Shown here piece by piece: positions 21,301 through 63,492 of a stretch of 64,000 bases of DNA. This DNA comes from Patescibacteria group bacterium (GTDB lineage Bacteria; Patescibacteriota; Microgenomatia; UBA1400; PJMF01). The position numbers and the translations under genes are program-made. The DNA lies in the NCBI GenBank assembly GCA_041747555.1, contig JBGTEY010000007.1, positions 11,426 through 75,425 on the forward strand, in the 5' to 3' direction. Each line of letters begins with the position of its first letter. The stretch's first letter is position 1. Below the pieces are notes generated by a model. That model ran no database searches, had not been told where the DNA came from, and saw only the letters and a list, made by a program, of their open reading frames with translations.

Positions 21301-22077
21301 TCAATCGGTGAGCCGGGTACTCAGCTGACTATGCGTGTCAAGCACTCAGGAGGTATCGTTGGACTCGACGTGACGCAAGGTTTGCCACGTGTCGAGGAAA
21401 TGCTCGAGGCCAGAAATCCAAAGCGACCAGCAGTAATTAGCGAGTTGGCAGGTAAAGTTTTGATCGAAGAAGGTGATAAAGAAACCATCATCACTGTTCG
21501 TACCACAACCAAGCCTGTTGAGGAAGTTACTTACAAGGTCAATACCAATATTCCACTTCAAGTAGAATCTGGTGATTTGGTAGGAATTGGTCAGCAGCTT
21601 TCAGAAGGTTCAATCGATCTTCAGGAGTTACTGCAGATCAAAGGCTTGCAACACACCCAGCTCTATGTGCTCGATCAAGTTCAACACGTGTACGAGTCAC
21701 AAGGTATTCCAATTCATGACAAACATTTTGAAGTCATCATTCGTAAAATGAGTGACAAACTTCAAATCGAGCAGTCAGGTGATACCGATTATCTGCCAGG
21801 TGAAATTGTTGAGCGAAGTCGCTTCATCCAATCCAATGATGAAACCATGGCGGCAGGTGGTGAGCCAGCAACAGCTAAGATTCTCTTCCTCGGAATTACC
21901 CGCTCGTCACTCTTCACCTATTCCTGGTTATCAGCTGCATCATTCCAGCACACCAAAAATGTGTTGACCGACGCCGCGTCATCAGGAGCAATAGACGAGC
22001 TCGAAGGCCTCAAGGAAAATGTGATTATTGGTCGGTTAATTCCAACCACTCCAGAGAGGGCATCAATAGAAATGTAA
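18352..22077 (+). CDS. rpoC: DNA-directed RNA polymerase subunit beta', with a coiled-coil insertion near the N-terminus
   Basis: 1241 aa. Zn-finger [23 protein letters not shown]. Catalytic [15 protein letters not shown]. Insertion at about aa 150-260 is rich in heptad-like KLQ repeats. Confidence 0.97.
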
Positions 22078-22084
22078 ACGATCA

Positions 22085-22112
22085 CGGCACTCGACTTTGA
22101 AAAGCCGAGTGC
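22085..22112 (+). terminator. Stem-loop with no U-tract after rpoC, overlapping the rpsL promoter. Partial terminator or processing site.
   Basis: GGCACTCGactttgaaaagcCGAGTGCC, an 8-bp stem, lies immediately before the TGTTACAAT -10. Confidence 0.35.
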
Positions 22113-22124
22113 CTGTGTTACAAT
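22097..22124 (+). promoter_or_regulatory. Promoter of the str operon (TTGAAA-N16-TGTTACAAT)
   Basis: TTGAAA 22097-22102. Extended -10 TGTTACAAT 22116-22124. The downstream region CAACGATTCAA is nearly identical to the rpoB promoter. Confidence 0.5.
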
Positions 22125-22142
22125 CAACGATTCAAACAACCT

Positions 22143-22556
22143 ATGCCAACAATTAATCAACTCATCAGAAAAGGTCGCAAGTCGAAGCCAAATAAAGTTA
22201 AGGCAACAGCACTGCGACGCAGCTACAACTCAAACACGGGAAGAATGGTTAAAACCACTAACCCACAAAAAAGAGGTGTCTGTACAGTAGTTAAAACCAT
22301 GACTCCAAAGAAACCGAACTCAGCGCTTCGTAAAGTTGCGCGTGTTCGACTTTCAAACAAAATGGAAGTCACCGCTTACATCATGGGAGAAGGTCACTCA
22401 CTCGCAGAGCACAGCATTGTGCTCATCAGAGGCGGAAGAGTCAAAGACTTACCTGGCGTGAAATACCATGTTGTTCGAGGTAAATATGACGCTGCTGGCG
22501 TTGATGGTCGTAAGACTAGCCGCAGTAAATATGGAGTAAAAAGACCTTCAGCATAA
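22143..22556 (+). CDS. rpsL: 30S ribosomal protein S12
   Basis: [28 protein letters not shown] ... [18 protein letters not shown]; 137 aa. Confidence 0.97.
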
Positions 22557-25374: not shown

Positions 25375-26571
<1,197 letters not shown>

Positions 26572-26577
26572 GAAATT

Positions 26578-26633
26578 GCCCCGCCGCAGGCGGGGCAAAC
26601 CCACGTAAACCCCGCCATTGTGCGGGGTTTACT
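26578..26633 (+). terminator. Tandem GC-rich hairpins after tuf. Rho-independent terminator.
   Basis: GCCCCGCCgcagGCGGGGC, then AAACCCCGCcattgtGCGGGGTTTACTTCT. A TAGTATAAT -10 for rpsJ follows at about 26648. Confidence 0.7.
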
Positions 26634-26698
26634 TCTGGGGGACGATCTAGTATAATCTCCTCCTATCGCATGGCACTAAAGAAATACATTAACAACAT

Positions 26699-27028
26699 AT
26701 GGCAAACAAGAAAAAAACCCAAGCATCATACAAGATTAGAGTTCGGCTTAAGTCGTACGATCATCGAGTAATTGATGATGCAAGTCGAAAAATTCTTGAA
26801 ACCGCACTTTCAACAGGTGCTCAGGTAGTAGGTCCAGTACCGCTTCCAACACATCTCAAGGAATTCACAGTTTTGGTTTCGCCACATGCTGACAAGAATG
26901 CTCAAGAGCATTATGGAATGAGAACACATAAGCGTTTGATTGACATTGTCAATCCAACAAGTAAAACAATTGATTCGCTTATGCATTTGGAACTCCCTGC
27001 CGGTGTTGCCATCCAAATAAAGATGTAA
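26699..27028 (+). CDS. rpsJ: 30S ribosomal protein S10
   Basis: [39 protein letters not shown]. Confidence 0.95.
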
Positions 27029-56213: not shown

Positions 56214-56429
56214 TTATAACCCCTTATCTTTAAGACATTTTGTATACATGTCGGCTACTGGGTACCAGACTTCGACTCCATCTGCACTTCTGGTGAGATA
56301 GCGCGAACTCTGGGCACATTGGTAGCGAGCTTCGTTATTGACCTGCATTTGGTAGAGGTAAAGACCAAAACCAACGAGACCAGCGAAAATCAAACCAATG
56401 ATGAGGGTGGGTATTGTATTATTTTGCAT
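56214..56429 (-). CDS. Small single-pass membrane protein, 71 aa, first gene of the GT2 operon
   Basis: MQNNTIPTLIIGLIFAGLVGFGLYLYQ then a Cys-containing tail. It lies 31 nt upstream of GT2. The ORF-track N-extension was rejected. Confidence 0.4.
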   Translation of the reverse strand: MQNNTIPTLIIGLIFAGLVGFGLYLYQMQVNNEARYQCAQSSRYLTRSADGVEVWYPVADMYTKCLKDKGL

Positions 56430-56626
56430 GTTTTTCTTTCTGTTTTCTTTGTACAGACACCGGATGCTCGTTGCTTTGTGCCTTGTGCTGGGTCTGCTTC
56501 TATTGAAGTAGATTGTCCAGCGCCTTGTGGCGTGAGCATTGAGCAAGCCTGGTGTTCCGAGACCACCTCTTTTTGGAGATGAGCTCAGAACACCAGGCTA
56601 CAGGGTTGTAGTGGTGTTTTGTTACT

Positions 56627-56658
56627 AACCAGGTGACGGCTTTTAGGCCGTCACCTGG
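56627..56658 (-). terminator. Bidirectional rho-independent terminator
   Basis: ACCAGGTGACGGCttttaGGCCGTCACCTGGT. Confidence 0.65.
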
Positions 56659-56672
56659 TACCTCATAGAGGC

Positions 56673-57842
56673 CTAGGGGGTAGGGCGTTCGTAATCGACT
56701 TCTCCGTGAATCAGGACTTCGATACCTGACGTCACGAAAAACTGATTATTTACACCGAGACAACCTTCAATAAAGCTGCAGTTGCCTCCCGCATTCGCGA
56801 GTTCCGTTGGGTTTAACTCACTGACACCATCTGTCATGTTCCACGTTGCGTGGGCCATGACGGCAGTAATTGCCTCGGGGAGGTGATCCCCATGGAAATA
56901 ATTGCCAGTGACAATGAAAGTGTTATCCAGGGTACCCGTAAATTCGGCCGAAGCGTAGCCCACATTTACGATGAGCAACGCGCAACCCAAGGGTTGATCT
57001 TCAGTAGTTACACAAGATCCCAGCCCGTCTAAGGACCAAGACCCTGTTACGAGCGTGTAATGCTCGCCCGCAACTACCAAATCACACTGGTCATTAGCCG
57101 CCCCACAGAATTGAGTTTGGTCCTGTGCGTAGTACATACCCCATTCGGCCGGAAAATCGGCTTCGGGGTTGTCTACGTCAGGGAACTCAACCCACAGGGG
57201 GGGATCCAGTGTGGGGAAGGCTGCCCAAGGGATTGAGCCTTGTCCGAGCATCTGGAGGGTTGCACCCTCGAAATACTCGACATACCAGCCGTTCACATCT
57301 GCTACCTGAGCGGCAGCAGGTAAACTGCTAGTTGTAACGTTTGTGTCGGTCGTGGTCGTGACTTTTACGCCATTCTCAACCTTCACCTCAGTTTCCAGAC
57401 CTCTCGCTTCCTCTACTTGATCCCGATACTCCTCAAGGGAGCTGGGAATACCACCGAGAATGCCGTTTGAGCTTTCAGTGGTTTCGGTCGAGGGTTGTGC
57501 GGGGGTTAGCGCAAGCGCCACTTGGTTTGAAACATCCTCTAAGAATTCCGTGTCCGTAATGATACGGGCGACGATCTCCTCAGTGTCAGCATCTTCACCG
57601 TCGGCACCTGCAACGCCTTGTGTACCGCGAGGGCCCTGAGGGCCTTGTGGGCCGGTTGTCGGCTCGATTTTCTCAAGCTCGGCAACCCTTTGGTACAAAT
57701 CATTAACTGCTACACGGTTTTCCGTGATTGCAGGGTTGGCCTCTGCCTGGTTTTCATTCCAGAACCACAGACCAACCATTGCCAGTACCAAGAAAAAAGA
57801 GAGAAGGGCGAAGCTAATCGCCAGGTTTACTTTTGCGTTCAT
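56673..57842 (-). CDS. Membrane-anchored protein with a short collagen-like (Gly-X-Y)7 stalk and a ~250-aa Cys-containing C-terminal globular domain
   Basis: Start at MNAKVNLAISFALLSFFLVLAMVGLWFW, with GGAGG 8 nt upstream. GPQGPQGPRGTQGVAGADGED. Confidence 0.55.
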   Translation of the reverse strand: MNAKVNLAISFALLSFFLVLAMVGLWFWNENQAEANPAITENRVAVNDLYQRVAELEKIEPTTGPQGPQGPRGTQGVAGADGEDADTEEIVARIITDTEFLEDVSNQVALALTPAQPSTETTESSNGILGGIPSSLEEYRDQVEEARGLETEVKVENGVKVTTTTDTNVTTSSLPAAAQVADVNGWYVEYFEGATLQMLGQGSIPWAAFPTLDPPLWVEFPDVDNPEADFPAEWGMYYAQDQTQFCGAANDQCDLVVAGEHYTLVTGSWSLDGLGSCVTTEDQPLGCALLIVNVGYASAEFTGTLDNTFIVTGNYFHGDHLPEAITAVMAHATWNMTDGVSELNPTELANAGGNCSFIEGCLGVNNQFFVTSGIEVLIHGEVDYERPTP

Positions 57843-58405
57843 TTTTTTGCCTCCTTGACAATTGATGAACATGGTCGCCGAGATCATGGTGGCGACCAAA
57901 GTTGACGTGCCGGATACCATCCGGCCATTTTTTCCTTCCGCGAAAACCGCGGATCGTCTAGCATCAAAGCGGGGCGGAAGGGGTACCAGACGTGCGATCG
58001 TTTGATCACACACCTAATGCCCCTTCCGCGAGGAGAACATGAACGTGCATTTACCCTTTTGTAATAAAAAACACTATAAATACATTCATCACTCGTAACT
58101 TAATACGCGTGATTCCCTGTAGCCTGTTAAAGATCGACTGTTTCGAACCGAAGTTCAATTCAGTCAATTTGTTTGTTTAAGCCGAAGCTTAAACGCTGCT
58201 CTGTCCCGTTTCGCCAAACATCGGCGCGATGCCGAGCTGGCAAGTGAGCTGAGCAGGGCAGTGGTTGTATCGCTCTTCAAAACTTACAACCACTGCTCTA
58301 CGCAGCTTGGTGTCGCTCTAAAATTCATGAAATGGGGTCGGGGTTTGAAGAGCGACTGACAGTTTTTTATTTAATGTACGTACTCATTGAGTACCACTAT
58401 GAATA

Positions 58406-58434
58406 ACTATATCACTGTATAACTAACTTGTCAA
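58406..58434 (-). promoter_or_regulatory. Sigma70 promoter on the minus strand (TTGACA-N17-TATAGT) within the shared CCCATAGTATTGACA motif
   Basis: Plus-strand ACTATA at 58406-58411 and TGTCAA at 58429-58434. It fires toward the collagen-like gene about 560 nt away. Confidence 0.45.
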
Positions 58435-58687
58435 TACTATGGGATGTAAAAATGGGTTATCCAGGCTAAATCAGTCTATTTTGCTTGGTTTATTGGTTGA
58501 TTTGTGGTGCTGGTTTGCCTGGGAAGGGAAACCAGAGTGGACCGGAGTTGAGTTAAGCCTTTTTTAGGGGCACAGGTGTTTTTAGGCACCTGCTCAAGCT
58601 CCGGTCCGGTGGGATCCTCGCCGTTACGACTTGCCTAGCGCGAGGCTAGGCTGGCGTGCGGGGGAGGAGTTCTGGTAAGTTGGGGAA

Positions 58688-59308
58688 TTAATCGCTTATC
58701 GTGATCTCGAAGGGGAAGCTTTGGCTACCAAGTGTCAGTAGTCCGTCAAAGCTTTTGGTACCTCCCGGGGTGTAGGAATACCAGTGACTCGTTTGTGCTG
58801 AGCCATTAGTAAATTCCACATCTGTTTCCGTTCCGTCTCCAAAAGAAACATTTCCCCACCCATTGGTGGTTGGGGAGCAGTTAAAATTGATGACGATATG
58901 GTTAACAGCTTGACCCTGAGAAGTGACGGTTGTGCAGTTGTTTATTGGGGGGGAGTCGTCAATCACAACTTTGTAGTGAAACGTGCTGTTTCCTACAGTA
59001 AAGAATGTGTTGTACTCCATGATACCACCAGGCGTGTAGCTGTAGTCATGGCTTGTCGTTCCGGGAGGAACGCTAAGCCCGGTGCCAGTACCGTCTCCAA
59101 AATCAAGGAAACCTTCAACATCCCCATCGCACTCGACGGTGAAATTGAAGCTGTTGATAGTCCCTTGTTTGACGACAGCAGTTGAGGTACAGCTGAGCCC
59201 ACCTACTGTTTCAGCTTGGGCTGTTTGAGTTCGAGTTGCGCCTGCAAGCAGTGCAATTAAACCCAAAAGTAGCACTAAAAATGCGATTTTTTTCACTATT
59301 TGTTTCAT
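58688..59308 (-). CDS. Secreted protein with two tandem PKD-like domains
   Basis: Signal peptide MKQIVKKIAFLVLLLGLIALLAGA. Repeat 1 FLDFGDGTGTGLSVPPGTTSHDYSYTPGGIMEYNTFFTV. Repeat 2 VSFGDGTETDVEFTNGSAQTSHWYSYTPGGTKSFDGLLTL. Both fit the PKD pattern FGDG ... H.Y ... G.Y. Confidence 0.65.
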   Translation of the reverse strand: MKQIVKKIAFLVLLLGLIALLAGATRTQTAQAETVGGLSCTSTAVVKQGTINSFNFTVECDGDVEGFLDFGDGTGTGLSVPPGTTSHDYSYTPGGIMEYNTFFTVGNSTFHYKVVIDDSPPINNCTTVTSQGQAVNHIVINFNCSPTTNGWGNVSFGDGTETDVEFTNGSAQTSHWYSYTPGGTKSFDGLLTLGSQSFPFEITISD

Positions 59309-59782
59309 TTTCTTACTTTTTTCCTTTTTCAGAATATTGTTGTCTTCTAATGAAACCCCAAGTATTGAACTTGAGTCAGGGAATCACACCCCGTCTGCCA
59401 AACGCCCGGCTAGGCCTTGAGTCATTTACACCTCCTTTTGGTTTTTCTGTAGACTCGTCATAAACTCCAGTTTCCTCAAGTACATGACGAGTCTACCGAA
59501 TTGCCGAAGGAAGTCCCTTTGATCAATCCTTTTTCCTTACCAGATGTTAAAGAGCGGCGATGCGTGTGCATCGCGTCCTACGCGCGCGACTCAACACCAG
59601 ATGCAATATCTGGGTGAGGGTTGCGAGCAGGCGGATGGGGACAACGTTTGTTGTTTGGTTGGGGAGATGGAGGCGAATTGGTTGTCTCCAACCGTGTGCT
59701 CACAGTGTATATAAGCGTATCACCTCTAGGTCTATAAGTCAATACTATGGGATGTTAAAGAGAAATGTCTTGACCAAAAAAA

Positions 59783-59817: not shown

Positions 59818-60162
59818 CTATCTGCGAATCACACCTCCTTTTGGTACCTTGTGTATGACCCAAGTACCAAATATGGTTGCAAGAGGTACGACCCCTGCTA
59901 TGCCACAAGAAAAAAGTCCCAGTCCAAGTAGTTGTAGCCCCATTATTAGTAGGTTGCTTGTACTGGCGGTCATCGCGGTCGTAGCGCTCAATCCCAGACC
60001 ATATGTCGCTGCGAAACCAGCAACGTACGATAGTATGAGAATAAACCACCACCTACCTCTTTTTTCTTTGGTAAAAATGGTGGCACAAACGAGCCACCAC
60101 ATCACCCCTGTCCAGAGCCCAAACCAATAAGGCCAGTTCTCTGGATTAAAAATTGATAGCAT
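59818..60162 (-). CDS. Small 3-TM membrane protein, 114 aa, in the WWF family shared with 60453..60725 and 62963..63235
   Basis: SD AAGGAGGT 7 nt upstream. MLSIFNPENWPYWFGLWTGVMWWLV ... RGRWWFILILSYVAG. Confidence 0.5.
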   Translation of the reverse strand: MLSIFNPENWPYWFGLWTGVMWWLVCATIFTKEKRGRWWFILILSYVAGFAATYGLGLSATTAMTASTSNLLIMGLQLLGLGLFSCGIAGVVPLATIFGTWVIHKVPKGGVIRR

Positions 60163-60420
60163 ATAGCTACCTCCTTCGAATAATCTCCTCCGAAGAGGGA
60201 AGCTCTACGCACCGTAATGCGCACAGCTCCCCTCTTCGAGAGATCGTTTGGAGGTCCAGAGGTGAAATGTTAAATAGCAGATAGATGATGCAAGCTCAAA
60301 CTCCACGACTTTTGACGCAAATGTCAGGATCGTTTTGTGCAAACTTCATCAGGATAATTATACAGGAAGTAGTATTAGAATGTACTATGGGATGTATTAA
60401 AAGTGTTTTTGAGCAAAAAA

Positions 60421-60464
60421 ATGGCCGCCCCCCTTGGGGAGCGGCCGTAGCTCTATTTTTTTTC
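60421..60464 (-). terminator. Bidirectional terminator, near-identical to the copy at 62926..62966
   Basis: AAAAAAATGGCCGCCCCCCttggGGAGCGGCCgtagctctaTTTTTTTT. Confidence 0.7.
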
Positions 60465-60725
60465 ACCTCTTCTCAGACTAAGAAACGCCACGCCAACAGA
60501 TATTACGATTGGCGTCAATTTTTGGACAATTTCCAGCCAGCCGCCGTCGGCGGCGGGTGAAACCTGTAAAATTGTGTTTTCAATGTTGATCATTGAAAAC
60601 CATAAAGATGTGGCAATTGCTACAAACCACCATTTAGAACTATTTTGTCGCAGGCCAATCTGTATGGTGATATAGACTAATGCCAGTGTACTAATTGCTG
60701 TCAAAAAATAAACTAAAAAAATCAT
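60453..60725 (-). CDS. Small 3-TM membrane protein, 90 aa, paralog of 62963..63235
   Basis: GGAGG then ATG at 60725. MIFLVYFLTAISTLALVY ... KWWFVAIATSLWF. The ORF-track N-extension to 60887 was rejected because it runs through the conserved leader. Confidence 0.5.
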   Translation of the reverse strand: MIFLVYFLTAISTLALVYITIQIGLRQNSSKWWFVAIATSLWFSMINIENTILQVSPAADGGWLEIVQKLTPIVISVGVAFLSLRRGEKK

Positions 60726-60990
60726 TTGTTTCCTCCATGAGAGTTTTATTCCCTTTCCTCGTGAAAGGGCCACCAAACACGATGATGCAGATACATCATG
60801 TGCAGCGTCCCTTTCTCGAGATGGAGGCGTGGTTTTATGAGCCTTAGTGAAAAGGTGTTTTAAAGAGCTAAATCGATAGATGCTCATTTATATGTAACAG
60901 TATCTGATGCGATTTCAGGCTGTTCCACACAAACTACATCAATTCTATTATGACATTAAACGGCCAAGTGTCAATACTATAGGACTATAA
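60726..60990 (-). repeat. Conserved promoter-plus-leader repeat, copy 1. It holds TTGACA-N16-CATAAT and a ~215-nt structured 5' UTR.
   Basis: About 85% identical to 63236..63492. Anti-SD CCUCCAU at plus 60821-60827 can pair with the SD region at 60732-60738. Alternative GAAAGGG/CCCUUUC pairings are possible. Confidence 0.55.
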
Positions 60991-62925: not shown

Positions 62926-62966
62926 AAAAATGGCCGCCCCCCTTGGGGAGCGGCCTGTAGCTCTAT
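62926..62966 (-). terminator. Bidirectional terminator, copy of 60421..60464
   Basis: AAAAAAATGGCCGCCCCCCttggGGAGCGGCCtgtagctctaTTT. Confidence 0.7.
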
Positions 62967-63235
62967 TTATTATTACCTCCTATGAGTCCTAACAAGACTA
63001 TGAGTCCAGCCGCCGAAACAGGGGCCAAGACCATTACCAAATAAGCTTCCCAACCCTCGTTGGGAACTTGATTTGTTGTCAAAGCGACCCATTCTAGGGC
63101 CTCAACGGCAAGTAGATACAGTGCTACGGTGGTTGCCCACCATAGCAATCCGCCCGTTCGCGCAATCTTCCATGCGGAAAAATAGAGCCCTATAAGGGAG
63201 GTGACAGCTACAATGACCGAAAACATAAAAATCAT
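62963..63235 (-). CDS. Small 3-TM membrane protein, 90 aa, paralog of 60453..60725
   Basis: GGAGG then ATG at 63235. MIFMFSVIVAVTSLIGLY ... LLWWATTVALYLL. Same length as its paralog and the same Trp-Trp position. Confidence 0.5.
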   Translation of the reverse strand: MIFMFSVIVAVTSLIGLYFSAWKIARTGGLLWWATTVALYLLAVEALEWVALTTNQVPNEGWEAYLVMVLAPVSAAGLIVLLGLIGGNNK

Positions 63236-63492
63236 TTTTTTGCCTCCAAAGTGTATTCCTTTCTCAAGAAAGGGCCACTAAACACGAAAAAGAAGTACTC
63301 GTGCGCAGCGTCCCTTCCTCGAGATGGAGGCGTGGTTTTATGAGCCTTAGTGAGAAGGTGTTTTAAAGAGCAAATCGAAAGATGCATGTTAGTGTCTTAC
63401 AGTGTCTGATGCTATATCAGGCTGTCTAACACAAACTACATCTATTCTATTATGACATTAAACGGCCAAGTGTCAATACTATAAGGACTTAA
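63236..63492 (-). repeat. Conserved promoter-plus-leader repeat, copy 2
   Basis: TGTCAA at 63471-63476 and ATTATG at 63449-63454 on the plus strand. Anti-SD ATGGAGG at 63324-63330. Confidence 0.55.

Follow-up and report, generated by a model that had tools for sequence, protein, structure and literature searches.

The window, by which we mean the whole 64-kb stretch of DNA analysed, carries on its minus strand a gene (56673..57842) for a protein of 389 aa. This protein combines a membrane anchor at its N-terminus with a short G-X-Y stalk and a conserved domain of ~200 aa at its C-terminus, and it has no Pfam match. Only its C-terminal half aligns in most homologues, the one at the related locus L002 aligning over most of its length. 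A search with the product of the upstream 206-aa gene retrieved only that protein itself. Between the stop codon of the upstream gene and the promoter described below, a structured segment with a C-rich, G-poor tract (58448..58687, minus strand; GC skew +0.33 on the plus strand at 58450-58599) folds with z = -6.7, shows ~70-85% identity and keeps seven pairs through two-sided changes. This segment is probably the 3' UTR of the upstream gene.

The 389-aa gene is predicted to be preceded by an untranslated leader of ~557 nt that starts at a near-consensus promoter (58406..58446, minus strand). The promoter consists of an upstream motif CATCCCATAGTA, a -35 element TTGACA (58434-58429) and a -10 element TATAGT (58411-58406), with a 17-nt spacer that includes a TG, and it places the predicted transcription start near 58399. 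It matches the consensus at 11 of 12 positions, has an extended -10, and was the sole sigma-70-like hit in 56500-59500. The promoter motif CATCCCATAGTATTGAC occurs again at 59754 and 60986, and variants stand ahead of other leaders of the family described below. Between the promoter (58434-58406) and the ATG no terminator-like site was found on the minus strand, and the promoter and this absence were together counted as support for one transcription unit.

The 3' third of this leader is a block of hairpins (57843-58029), which had been described from the sequence alone as GC-rich and likely to be structured RNA. The four stems claimed in that earlier note are all present on the minus strand, where they are stable and span 57873-58029; two of their start coordinates were off by one. 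Hairpin 1 (58029-57974) has an outer stem GCGGAAGGGG/CCCCUUCCGC that extends inward to ~25 near-continuous bp, and is followed by hairpin 2 (57952-57938; CCGCGG-UUUU-CGCGG), hairpin 3 (57925-57909; GCCGGAU-GGU-AUCCGGC) and hairpin 4 (57897-57873; GGUCGCC...GGCGACC). Dinucleotide shuffles of a 198-nt stretch average -62.7 +/- 4.3 kcal/mol, whereas the stretch itself folds at -90.1 kcal/mol (z = -6.3, with none of 200 shuffles as stable), and the prediction is of structured RNA on the same strand as the downstream gene. The opposite strand of the same stretch gave z = -5.4, and the mean for 200-nt windows across the whole window was -0.58 (sd 1.6). The claim of high GC held against the immediate flanks (0.56 vs 0.41-0.45) but not against the downstream gene body, which is equally GC-rich (0.55-0.59). 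The block does end close to the Shine-Dalgarno (SD) sequence, 17 nt before AAGGAGG (57856-57850), with the ATG at 57842. No U-run follows any of the four hairpins on the transcribed strand, and an intrinsic terminator or attenuator was rejected on finding no minus-strand terminator-like site between 58400 and 57843. Read on the plus strand, a T-run follows hairpin 3; no plus-strand gene approaches the block.

A GTG-started ORF (56673..58013) reads through the block, but it is not credible because the orthologues begin at the ATG with a signal-anchor N-terminus. The earlier suggestion that the block is non-coding is borne out by orthologues that start at the ATG, by indels across the block in the related locus L003, one of them of 21 nt, and by the lack of any alignable sequence there in L002. 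A protein-coding N-terminal extension was rejected on the same grounds: homologues begin at the ATG, and the block is indel-ridden in L003 and replaced by unrelated sequence in L002.

In comparison with L003 and L002, few stretches of the leader are less conserved in sequence than the block. Nothing is alignable in L002. In L003 hairpin 1 is kept, with changes in its terminal loop and one one-sided stem change (A-U to G-U), hairpin 2 is retained with an inserted G/C, hairpin 4 reads GGUCACC/GGUGACC, a G-C to A-U replacement changed on both sides, and hairpin 3 is missing. Hairpins 2-4 lack conservation and possibly serve no particular function. The earlier note had raised a sensor or a stability element. 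Nothing was found for a sensor, with no Rfam match at gathering or relaxed thresholds, while stability may be part of what the block contributes. We read the block as a variable structured spacer between the RBS and the boxA-like module described below.

Searches for known elements returned little. Against Rfam, the whole window gave no match at gathering, the intergenic gap gave only miRNA-like noise at E <= 10, and 24 related loci gave no hits at gathering with Rfam 15. ARAGORN found no tRNA or tmRNA. When the 64-kb window was searched by blastn with the gap, neither a second copy of the block nor any other repeat of the gap was found. Blastn of the gap against phages and plasmids and a search of IMG/VR with a core 26-mer also found nothing. 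A REP/MITE reading was rejected because the window holds no further copy and the phage, plasmid and IMG/VR searches gave no match.

The conserved part of the leader is directly upstream of the block and had been overlooked by the earlier note. This ultra-conserved core of 396 nt (58052..58447, minus strand, promoter included) is ~99% identical in three genomes, with 11 variable columns among the window, L003 and L002. Identity of the flanking coding DNA is 77-90%, that of the downstream protein 57-65%, and that of the flanking genes overall 55-90%. The core folds with z = -7.05 and none of its predicted base pairs varies. Both the MFE and alifold structures include a 5'-proximal hairpin GUACUC-AAU-GAGUAC (58380..58394, minus strand), in which the single change, in L002, falls within the loop. 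The core also carries two cUUCGg tetraloops and a 12-nt perfect complementarity (58355-58344 with 58281-58270). It contains no ORF >38 aa, and a small-ORF search gave nothing convincing. A core 20-mer had one chance Rhodococcus match in GTDB genomes and no match in JGI metagenomes, and a three-sequence nhmmer profile found nothing at distant orthologue loci. The idea that the core is a copy of an rRNA-operon leader kept identical by gene conversion was not supported by the motif-bearing loci, none of which carries rRNA, although it may apply in this genome.

Inside the core is a module made up of a hairpin, GAUCUUUAACA, GGCUACAGGGAA and a second hairpin, all on the minus strand. The first hairpin (58136..58165; GACUG-AA-UUGAAC-UUCG-GUUCGA-AA-CAGUC) is two-tiered and boxB-like, and ends directly at the G of a boxA-like GAUCUUUAACA (58125..58135). 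The latter matches 10 of 11 positions of the boxA consensus GYUCUUUAANA (DNA GYTCTTTAANA; PMC5725501), the mismatch being at position 2 (GAU... vs GYU...). The 3' extension GGCUACAGGGAA (58113..58124; family consensus GGCAUACAGGAA) takes the position held by boxC in rrn leaders, and the second hairpin (58088..58113) flanks the module on its 3' side. The boxA is ~265 nt from the predicted start site, within the predicted untranslated leader, and 283 nt from the AUG. The candidate target of NusB-S10 is the boxA RNA GAUCUUUAACAGGCUACAGGGAA.

The 3' extension is common to the window, L004, L006, L015 and ~16 metagenome loci; a motif scan of JGI metagenomes had returned 21 loci, ~16 of them genuine. 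The sequence GCUCUUUAACA(A)GGCAUACAGGAA was recovered from ~19 distinct leaders of relatives and metagenomes; its first 12 nt are E. coli rrn boxA, and a boxB-like hairpin abuts it. The E. coli rrnB boxA 12-mer, read from the genome, has a full match in five family members, and in rrnB 2 nt separate the end of the boxB hairpin from boxA. At least one exact boxA match is present at the motif in each of 17 non-E. coli loci. Several members form a subgroup with GCACUUUAACA, which differs at boxA position 3. In the clade of the window the family motif is short by 1 nt, a deletion that in retrospect made the core 20-mer an unlucky query for the JGI metagenomes. The only sequence common to leaders of distant orthologues is CUUUAACA(A)GGC(A)UACAGGRA, which was discovered by reading folds. 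Flanking hairpins were counted by anchors with controls, as hairpin lengths were too variable for MAFFT seeding of a covariance model. Of 19 members, 16 have a hairpin whose end is no more than 3 nt from boxA, 18 have one that begins at most 7 nt past the motif, and 15 have hairpins on both sides, against 19% of control anchors (p = 2e-8). A k-mer search for further motifs shared by the family recovered only the promoter and the boxA module, and in the family at large the 5' domain shows no conservation. Two matches to the family motif in IMG/VR were judged to be chance because they lacked the boxA 5' end and the flanking hairpins. A full-text literature search with the motif sequence found no paper, and the family, found in CPR-type bacteria, appears to be previously uncatalogued.

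Every member has a gene of matching orientation 180-770 nt downstream of the module, and the distance from boxA to the start codon is 180-290 nt in most. All 13 readable downstream genes encode exported products with an N-terminal signal peptide, membrane anchor or lipobox, and beyond export they share no metabolic theme. The 64-kb window has three exact boxA sequences, where 0.56 would be expected. All three are on the minus strand, within one 4-kb run of genes for small membrane or secreted proteins; one is in an intergenic leader and two are inside listed ORFs that we re-read as leader. L004 and L006 have further exact boxA matches ahead of their next genes.

The spacers between module and gene are structured in all 13 members tested (z -4.3 to -10.3); that of the window measures 268 nt (z = -5.3) and has a 25-bp helix, which is hairpin 1. 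The longest helix is 18-39 bp in these 13 spacers, its median of 24 comparing with 14 for CDS controls (p = 4.5e-5). Hairpin 1 is, speculatively, a candidate RNase III substrate. The start region itself is predicted to be paired. A local hairpin (57837..57870, minus strand) pairs GUUCAU with AUGAAC, which contains the start codon (57842-57840), and UUGUC with GGCAA, leaving the SD in and beside its loop. The AUG is paired with p = 0.86-1.0, ~0.88 of it within this hairpin, and L003 and L002 form equivalent AUG hairpins from different sequences. Immediately 5' of hairpin 1, a distal anti-RBS segment CGUUCAUGUUCUCCU (58031..58045, minus strand) is complementary to the AUG and SD and is the best RBS duplex partner in the entire leader (-14.8 kcal/mol in the window, -18.5 in L003, -14.9 in L002). 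Both partners of this pairing differ in L002. It makes up ~10% of the predicted ensemble and the local hairpin ~90%. Five other members have comparable anti-SD sites, at 34-132 nt past the motif. RBS pairing in the family was 0.63 vs 0.49 in 53 control genes (p = 0.0018), a modest excess over controls whose start codons are approximate. The predicted RBS pairing is backed by compensatory changes.

On balance we lean towards interpreting the leader as a nut-like Nus-factor leader resembling that of the phage lambda N gene, with the hairpin block as its structured spacer. The family layout would begin with a strong promoter and a structured 5' domain of 190-290 nt, continue with a nut-like module (boxB-like hairpin, GCUCUUUAACA, (A)GGCAUACAGGAA and second hairpin) and a hairpin-packed spacer of 160-745 nt including one ~20-25-bp helix, and finish with a base-paired RBS and the gene for an exported protein. 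As the RNA emerged, NusB-S10 would bind boxA and RNA polymerase would become termination-resistant in the manner of rrn operons and lambda, and such a complex would cross the long untranslated structured leader without Rho-dependent termination. The RNA loop between boxA and polymerase, together with the compact hairpin spacer, would keep the RBS closed, through the local start-codon hairpin for the most part or through pairing of SD and AUG with the anti-RBS segment. More speculatively, RNase III might cut at hairpin 1 and separate the nut module from the message, as for lambda N, thereby resetting both translation and stability. The Nus effect could run in either direction, as pure anti-termination or as repression of the suhB/lambda-N type. 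S10/NusE is encoded in the window (26699-27028) and Rho in a relative; the ORFs tested in the window, which covers 64 kb of the genome, yielded no NusB, NusG, Rho or RNase III.

The closest parallel is the lambda N leader, in which pL is followed by the nutL boxA/boxB, an RNase III-sensitive structured region and the N RBS. Both have a nut-type signal some 200 nt upstream of the regulated start codon and highly structured intervening RNA with a long helix, of ~25 bp in the window, and in both Nus loading is proposed to be coupled to translation of the first gene (PMC5725501, discussion). The likeness of the window to lambda N and suhB is one of geometry only: a boxA upstream of the RBS, a compact spacer and a helix of RNase III size. 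The hairpin here precedes boxA, as in rrn, whereas in lambda boxA precedes boxB; no N-like protein is known here, the genes are chromosomal CPR genes for exported proteins and not phage genes, and the GGCAUACAGGAA extension and the 190-290-nt 5' domain are additional. The anti-termination sites of E. coli rrn leaders (boxB-boxA-boxC, rrnTAC; PMC10250234) share the 12-mer GCUCUUUAACAA, which is identical in several family members, a hairpin ending 0-3 nt before boxA and a long untranslated structured transcript. They differ in preceding rRNA instead of protein-coding genes, in having boxA ~30-60 nt from the start site, in lacking the A at boxA position 2 seen in the window, and in a boxC unrelated to the sequence at the same position here. 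The suhB 5' UTR resembles the family in placing boxA in an mRNA leader and in a genome that has several candidate boxA-regulated genes (Baniulyte et al. 2017, PMC5725501). Its boxA is part of a Nus-factor autoregulation loop and stands no more than ~50 nt from the start codon, whereas the module here is larger and more distant and its targets encode envelope proteins. Elements of boxA type reportedly also stand upstream of CRISPR arrays; as proposed for the present leaders, boxA there shields a long untranslated transcript from Rho, but here the untranslated part is only ~0.5 kb and ends in a translated gene. The rpoS 5' UTR sequesters its RBS at long range, and the leader in the window is predicted to do likewise, an upstream anti-RBS segment pairing with SD and AUG across a structured domain. 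Unlike rpoS, no sRNA/Hfq partner is known here and a competing local hairpin dominates the predicted ensemble.

Other readings give the same features a different weight. The chief effect of Nus factors recruited by the module might be to repress translation of the gene that follows, as in suhB and lambda N, the boxA-polymerase loop compacted by the block exposing the mRNA to Rho, so that these genes would be down-regulated whenever Nus factors are free. A boxA 180-290 nt from the start codon behind a structured spacer reproduces the geometry of lambda nutL/N and suhB, the RBS is predicted to be paired, and boxA can promote Rho-dependent termination (PMC12360218). We regard this as a minority possibility, given that a near-consensus promoter in front of envelope-protein genes suggests high expression and that repression over >200 nt has been demonstrated only with the phage N protein present. 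A plainer view, in which the hairpins stabilise and insulate a highly expressed mRNA by shielding it from RNases and Rho loading and by tuning translation, with the likeness to boxA irrelevant, would fit a block that evolves fast in sequence and retains its degree of structure, the hairpin near the 5' end and the many highly structured leaders in the neighbourhood. It seems unlikely, as it leaves unexplained a 20-24-nt motif kept across otherwise dissimilar leaders, the exact identity of that motif to rrn boxA with its abutting hairpin, and the clustering of exact boxA matches in leaders.

The conserved core invites readings of its own. As a free-standing stable ncRNA of ~350 nt, with its 3' terminus or a processing site at hairpin 1 and with separate expression of the surface-protein gene, it would account for conservation above that of the neighbouring genes, a strong promoter of its own and the two cUUCGg tetraloops. 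Such an RNA is quite improbable, since no minus-strand hairpin with a T run follows the core, no second promoter was detected ahead of the gene, the module always stands upstream of a same-orientation gene, and core 20-mers lack a true match in GTDB genomes or JGI metagenomes. Were the core instead the aptamer of a ligand- or temperature-sensing riboswitch or thermometer, the block would be an expression platform opening the RBS, in keeping with a conserved upstream domain, a variable platform, an RBS sequestered by two alternative pairings and the 12-nt complementarity as an alternative fold inside the core. We consider this very unlikely: no Rfam family matches, the wider family conserves the boxA module and not the 5' domain, and export is the only theme of the associated genes. 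Explanations outside RNA (a protein-coding extension, an extragenic palindrome or MITE, or a bidirectional terminator) could draw on the GTG-started ORF and on the plus-strand T-run after hairpin 3, but ATG starts in orthologues, the L003 indels, the unrelated L002 sequence, the single copy in the window, the lack of phage or plasmid matches and of a plus-strand gene near the block make them extremely improbable. Several points also count against the nut-like reading: the mismatch of the window's boxA at position 2, the position-3 difference in the GCACUUUAACA subgroup, a boxA much more distant from the start site than in E. coli rrn, the modest excess of RBS pairing, the poor conservation of hairpins 2-4, and the failure to find NusB, NusG, Rho or RNase III among the ORFs tested in the window. 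Nor does that reading explain why ~400 nt, and not ~60 nt, should be ~99% conserved. We entertain, as a doubtful extension, that the core is more than a nut site, being either a new large cis-acting RNA domain or a conserved recombination anchor, either of which, unlike boxA alone, would account for ~99% identity beside genes of 55-77%.

To our knowledge, Nus-factor/boxA control has been studied almost solely in rRNA operons, lambdoid phages and a few enterobacterial genes. If the boxA leader family is real, it would extend the Nus mechanism to a large uncultivated lineage, the CPR, and to genes of the cell envelope, and it would offer a cis-element for predicting highly expressed CPR surface proteins. 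For annotation, ORF callers lengthen or invent genes over leaders of this type. The ultra-conserved 396-nt core beside genes for hypervariable surface proteins is an unexplained signal. If it is a cis-acting RNA domain, it could be a sensor or a docking site for a transcription or translation factor specific to the CPR, and together with boxA it would link expression of surface proteins that diversify rapidly to the status of the machinery for transcription and ribosome synthesis; if it is a recombination anchor, alleles of hypervariable surface genes could be swapped between lineages.

The GC-rich hairpin block upstream of the target gene (57843-58029, minus strand) is best read as the variable, hairpin-bearing spacer in a leader of boxA (nut-like) type. 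The window comes from the chromosome of a CPR (Microgenomates-group) bacterium; rpoB/rpoC-sized genes and ribosomal-protein operons, S10 among them, lie at 14.8-44 kb. The block sits in an 845-nt gene-free gap on the minus strand, between a 206-aa secreted-protein ORF (58688..59308, minus) and the ATG at 57842 of the target gene (stop at 56673, minus), whose nearest named homologue is from 'Microgenomates group bacterium'. The target protein has an N-terminal membrane anchor and no Pfam match, C-terminal domain included. The earlier note called it collagen-like; G-X-Y triplets are present but number only about seven, and in homologues (L002, L003, L004, L006, L015, L038) this stalk is swapped for PT-rich or other low-complexity linkers. 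The C-terminal domain (about 200 aa) is kept at 32-65% identity across the same homologues.

The four stems first read in the block are all present, at 58029-57974, 57952-57938, 57925-57909 and 57897-57873 (hairpins 1 to 4), where they had been placed except for two start coordinates that were off by one. The 198-nt fold has a predicted energy of -90.1 kcal/mol (z = -6.3 against dinucleotide shuffles) and the opposite strand is slightly less stable (z = -5.4). Across the whole window, scanned in 200-nt steps, the mean z is -0.58 (sd 1.6), and windows with z < -4 cluster at 55.7-63.4 kb. The GC content of 0.56 does exceed that of the immediate flanks (0.41-0.45), but the gene body is equally GC-rich. 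That the block is non-coding is confirmed by the orthologues, which start at the ATG with a hydrophobic anchor, by indels across the block in L003 and by unrelated sequence there in L002. Hairpins 2-4 have no conserved counterparts in the family of related leaders; hairpin 4 is retained in L003 via a double change (G-C to A-U), and L002 carries another set of hairpins in place of the block's. On the plus strand hairpin 3 (57909-57925), with CATTTTTTCC directly after it, has a terminator-like score; it is absent from L003 and no plus-strand gene is nearby. Other intergenic stretches are also strongly structured as minus-strand folds (22001-22200, 26401-26700, 56401-56700 and 60101-60300; z -6.5 to -8.4), among them the gap that separates a 398-aa, EF-Tu-sized ORF from the S10 gene and the one that follows the stop codon of the target gene.

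Two related contigs align across the gap, L003 (NCBI MAG GCA_049289655.1) and L002 (Logan assembly). Among these two and the window a non-coding core of the leader (58447-58052, minus), promoter included, has 11 variable columns in 396 nt (~99% identity), compared with 77-90% identity in neighbouring coding DNA and 57-65% in the downstream protein (adjacent genes overall 55-90%). Within the core are a near-consensus promoter (TTGACA-17-TGnTATAGT, 58434-58406, minus) and, on the minus strand, two cUUCGg tetraloops; its ORFs do not exceed 38 aa. No predicted pair varies, all substitutions falling in predicted loops or linkers. In L003 conservation still covers hairpin 1 before it breaks down, and in L002 it ends at 58052, so the block is the least conserved part of the leader. 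The earlier interpretation of a structured RNA element stands in part: the block is non-coding and predicted to be structured, but the conserved part of the leader lies upstream of it.

Within the core, UCGCUCUUCAAA (58344-58355) is perfectly complementary over 12 nt to the long-hairpin loop UUUGAAGAGCGA (58270-58281, both minus), a pairing that competes with an 8-bp helix, GUCGCUCU/AGAGCGAC, and which lacks its terminal pair in both L003 and L002; it could represent a pseudoknot or an alternative fold. Upstream of the promoter, the segment following the 206-aa gene's stop codon (58448-58687, minus) is also strongly structured (z = -6.7), with no intrinsic terminator and with seven pairs in which, among the three genomes, both partners changed and the pairing was kept. 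At its end is a tract rich in C and poor in G (about 58510-58465), which resembles a site for Rho loading.

The leaders of the distant orthologues L004, L006 and L015 are equally strongly structured (z -7 to -10), and nhmmer detected no sequence shared among them. Reading their folds revealed a common motif, CUUUAACA(A)GGC(A)UACAGGRA, at 58132-58113 in the window, and a motif scan of JGI metagenomes gave 21 loci, about 16 of them genuine. Read with the two or three bases before it, the motif's 5' half is GCUCUUUAACA(A), which fits the boxA consensus GYTCTTTAANA (Baniulyte et al., PMC5725501); in five family members it equals the 12-mer found in the E. coli rrnB leader, taken directly from the genome, and the window's own copy, GAUCUUUAACA, has a mismatch at position 2. 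In E. coli rrnB the boxB hairpin ends 2 nt 5' of boxA. A hairpin ending within 3 nt of boxA, with a second starting no more than 7 nt past the motif, occurs in 15 of 19 non-redundant members, against 19% at random anchors in the same loci (p = 2e-8), and the sequences of these flanking hairpins vary among members. Computation establishes the motif and its surroundings, how structured the leaders are and that pairings have been kept. The boxB-like hairpin (58136-58165, minus; also in L029, L022, L034 and L004) has a recurring internal loop, 5' (A/G)AUU(G/A) opposite (C/U)GAA(A/C), which sits between two covarying stems and may be a protein-binding motif.

Near-identity over 396 nt is far beyond the need of a 60-nt nut module, and the boxA model has no explanation for it. 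The core's few substitutions are out of step with the relationships seen in the flanks, and either strong constraint for some further function or a recent recombination event may account for the near-identity. In another related pair of loci, L030 and L040, the leader is 82% identical from -236 to +312 relative to the motif, the DNA of the downstream lipoprotein gene is not alignable for about 860 nt past the leader alignment, and the proteins are 51% identical. The combination of a conserved leader with a hypervariable surface-protein gene therefore recurs outside the window's clade.

The boxA reading is supported by further copies and by a promoter-upstream motif common to the units that carry them. 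The 64-kb window contains three exact boxA matches (GCTCTTTAACA or GCTCTTTAAAA; 0.56 expected), at 59545-59555, 60858-60868 and 63361-63371, all on the minus strand upstream of three further small membrane/secreted protein genes in one 4-kb run; a one-mismatch copy lies at 60268-60278 (minus). The copy at 59555 is in an intergenic leader and those at 60868 and 63371 fall inside listed ORFs, re-read here as leader; a hairpin ends 1 nt before boxA at 59555 and 60868. L004 and L006 have additional exact matches 5' of the next genes. The heads of the boxA-bearing units in the window cluster also have a promoter-upstream motif, CATCCCATAGTATTGAC, in common. Its recurrent form CATCCCATAGTA lies directly 5' of the -35 TTGAC(A) at 58430-58446, 59738-59754, 60970-60986 and about 63466-63482 (minus), and in L003 (1055-1071, 2425-2441) and L002 (978-994). 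Variants of it (TCCYATAWNATTGAY, 17 nt, TGATAnAnT) stand at the start of family leaders in L004, L006, L015, L024, L029, L030 and L040, and the motif would be an extended promoter element or else a site bound by a regulator.

Two paralogous units (60453-60986 and 62963-63482, minus) are built alike: a promoter is followed by a boxA leader of ~225 nt, the gene for a 90-aa membrane protein and a canonical terminator. The true start of the 144-aa ORF 60453..60887 is probably at 60725 (GGAGG, 7 nt, ATG), and the 51-aa ORF 63232..63387 is probably leader, not gene. The leader of the 206-aa gene contains a 13-codon ORF, MTQGLAGRLADGV (59384-59425, minus), with a strong SD, AAAAGGAGG, about 75 nt upstream of that gene's start codon; it may encode a leader peptide.

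At 13 loci with a definable start codon, the spacer between boxA module and start codon measures 159-745 nt and is in every case strongly structured (z -4.3 to -10.3). Each spacer has a single helix that is nearly continuous over 18-39 bp (median 24), compared with a median of 14 bp in equal-length CDS controls (p = 4.5e-5); in the window this helix is hairpin 1 (25 bp). For the start codon, pairing is predicted with p about 0.9-1.0 in the window, L003 and L002, and in about 90% of the ensemble it lies within a local hairpin built of different sequence in each genome. In about 10%, SD and AUG are in a long-range helix with 58045-58031, directly 5' of hairpin 1, which of all segments of the leader forms the strongest duplex with the RBS in each of the three genomes (-14.8, -18.5 and -14.9 kcal/mol, respectively); both partners are changed in L002. 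Five other members have comparable anti-SD segments 34-132 nt past the motif. Pairing of the RBS region is 0.63 in the family and 0.49 in 53 window control genes (p = 0.0018), a modest effect with approximate control starts.

The leader runs from a promoter through a nut-type boxA module and a highly structured stretch of about 200 nt or more, which includes a long helix, to the RBS; its closest counterparts in layout are the phage lambda N and rrn leaders. In rrn operons boxA is necessary and sufficient for assembly of the anti-termination complex (PMC10250234). In lambda and suhB, translation is repressed by a boxA-polymerase loop (PMC5725501; see also PMC12360218), and in lambda the structured RNA in between is RNase III-sensitive (PMC5725501). 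From this anatomy and these known roles we propose that NusB-S10 would be loaded at the leader's boxA, making the polymerase Rho-resistant across about 557 nt of structured RNA that is not translated; on this minus strand there is no intrinsic-terminator-like site. The block would then serve as structured spacer and expression platform holding the RBS closed, with hairpin 1 as a candidate for RNase III cleavage; that Nus factors bind, that the RNA is processed and in which direction the effect goes are what we infer here. NusB, NusG, Rho and RNase III had no match among the window ORFs tested, and Rho is present in a relative. The boxA-type leader is absent from Rfam and from the literature searched. 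Every readable downstream gene in the family encodes a signal peptide, a membrane anchor or a lipobox at its start, and only 7 of 13 downstream proteins are homologous to that of the window; the leader thus goes with exported proteins, not with a single protein family.
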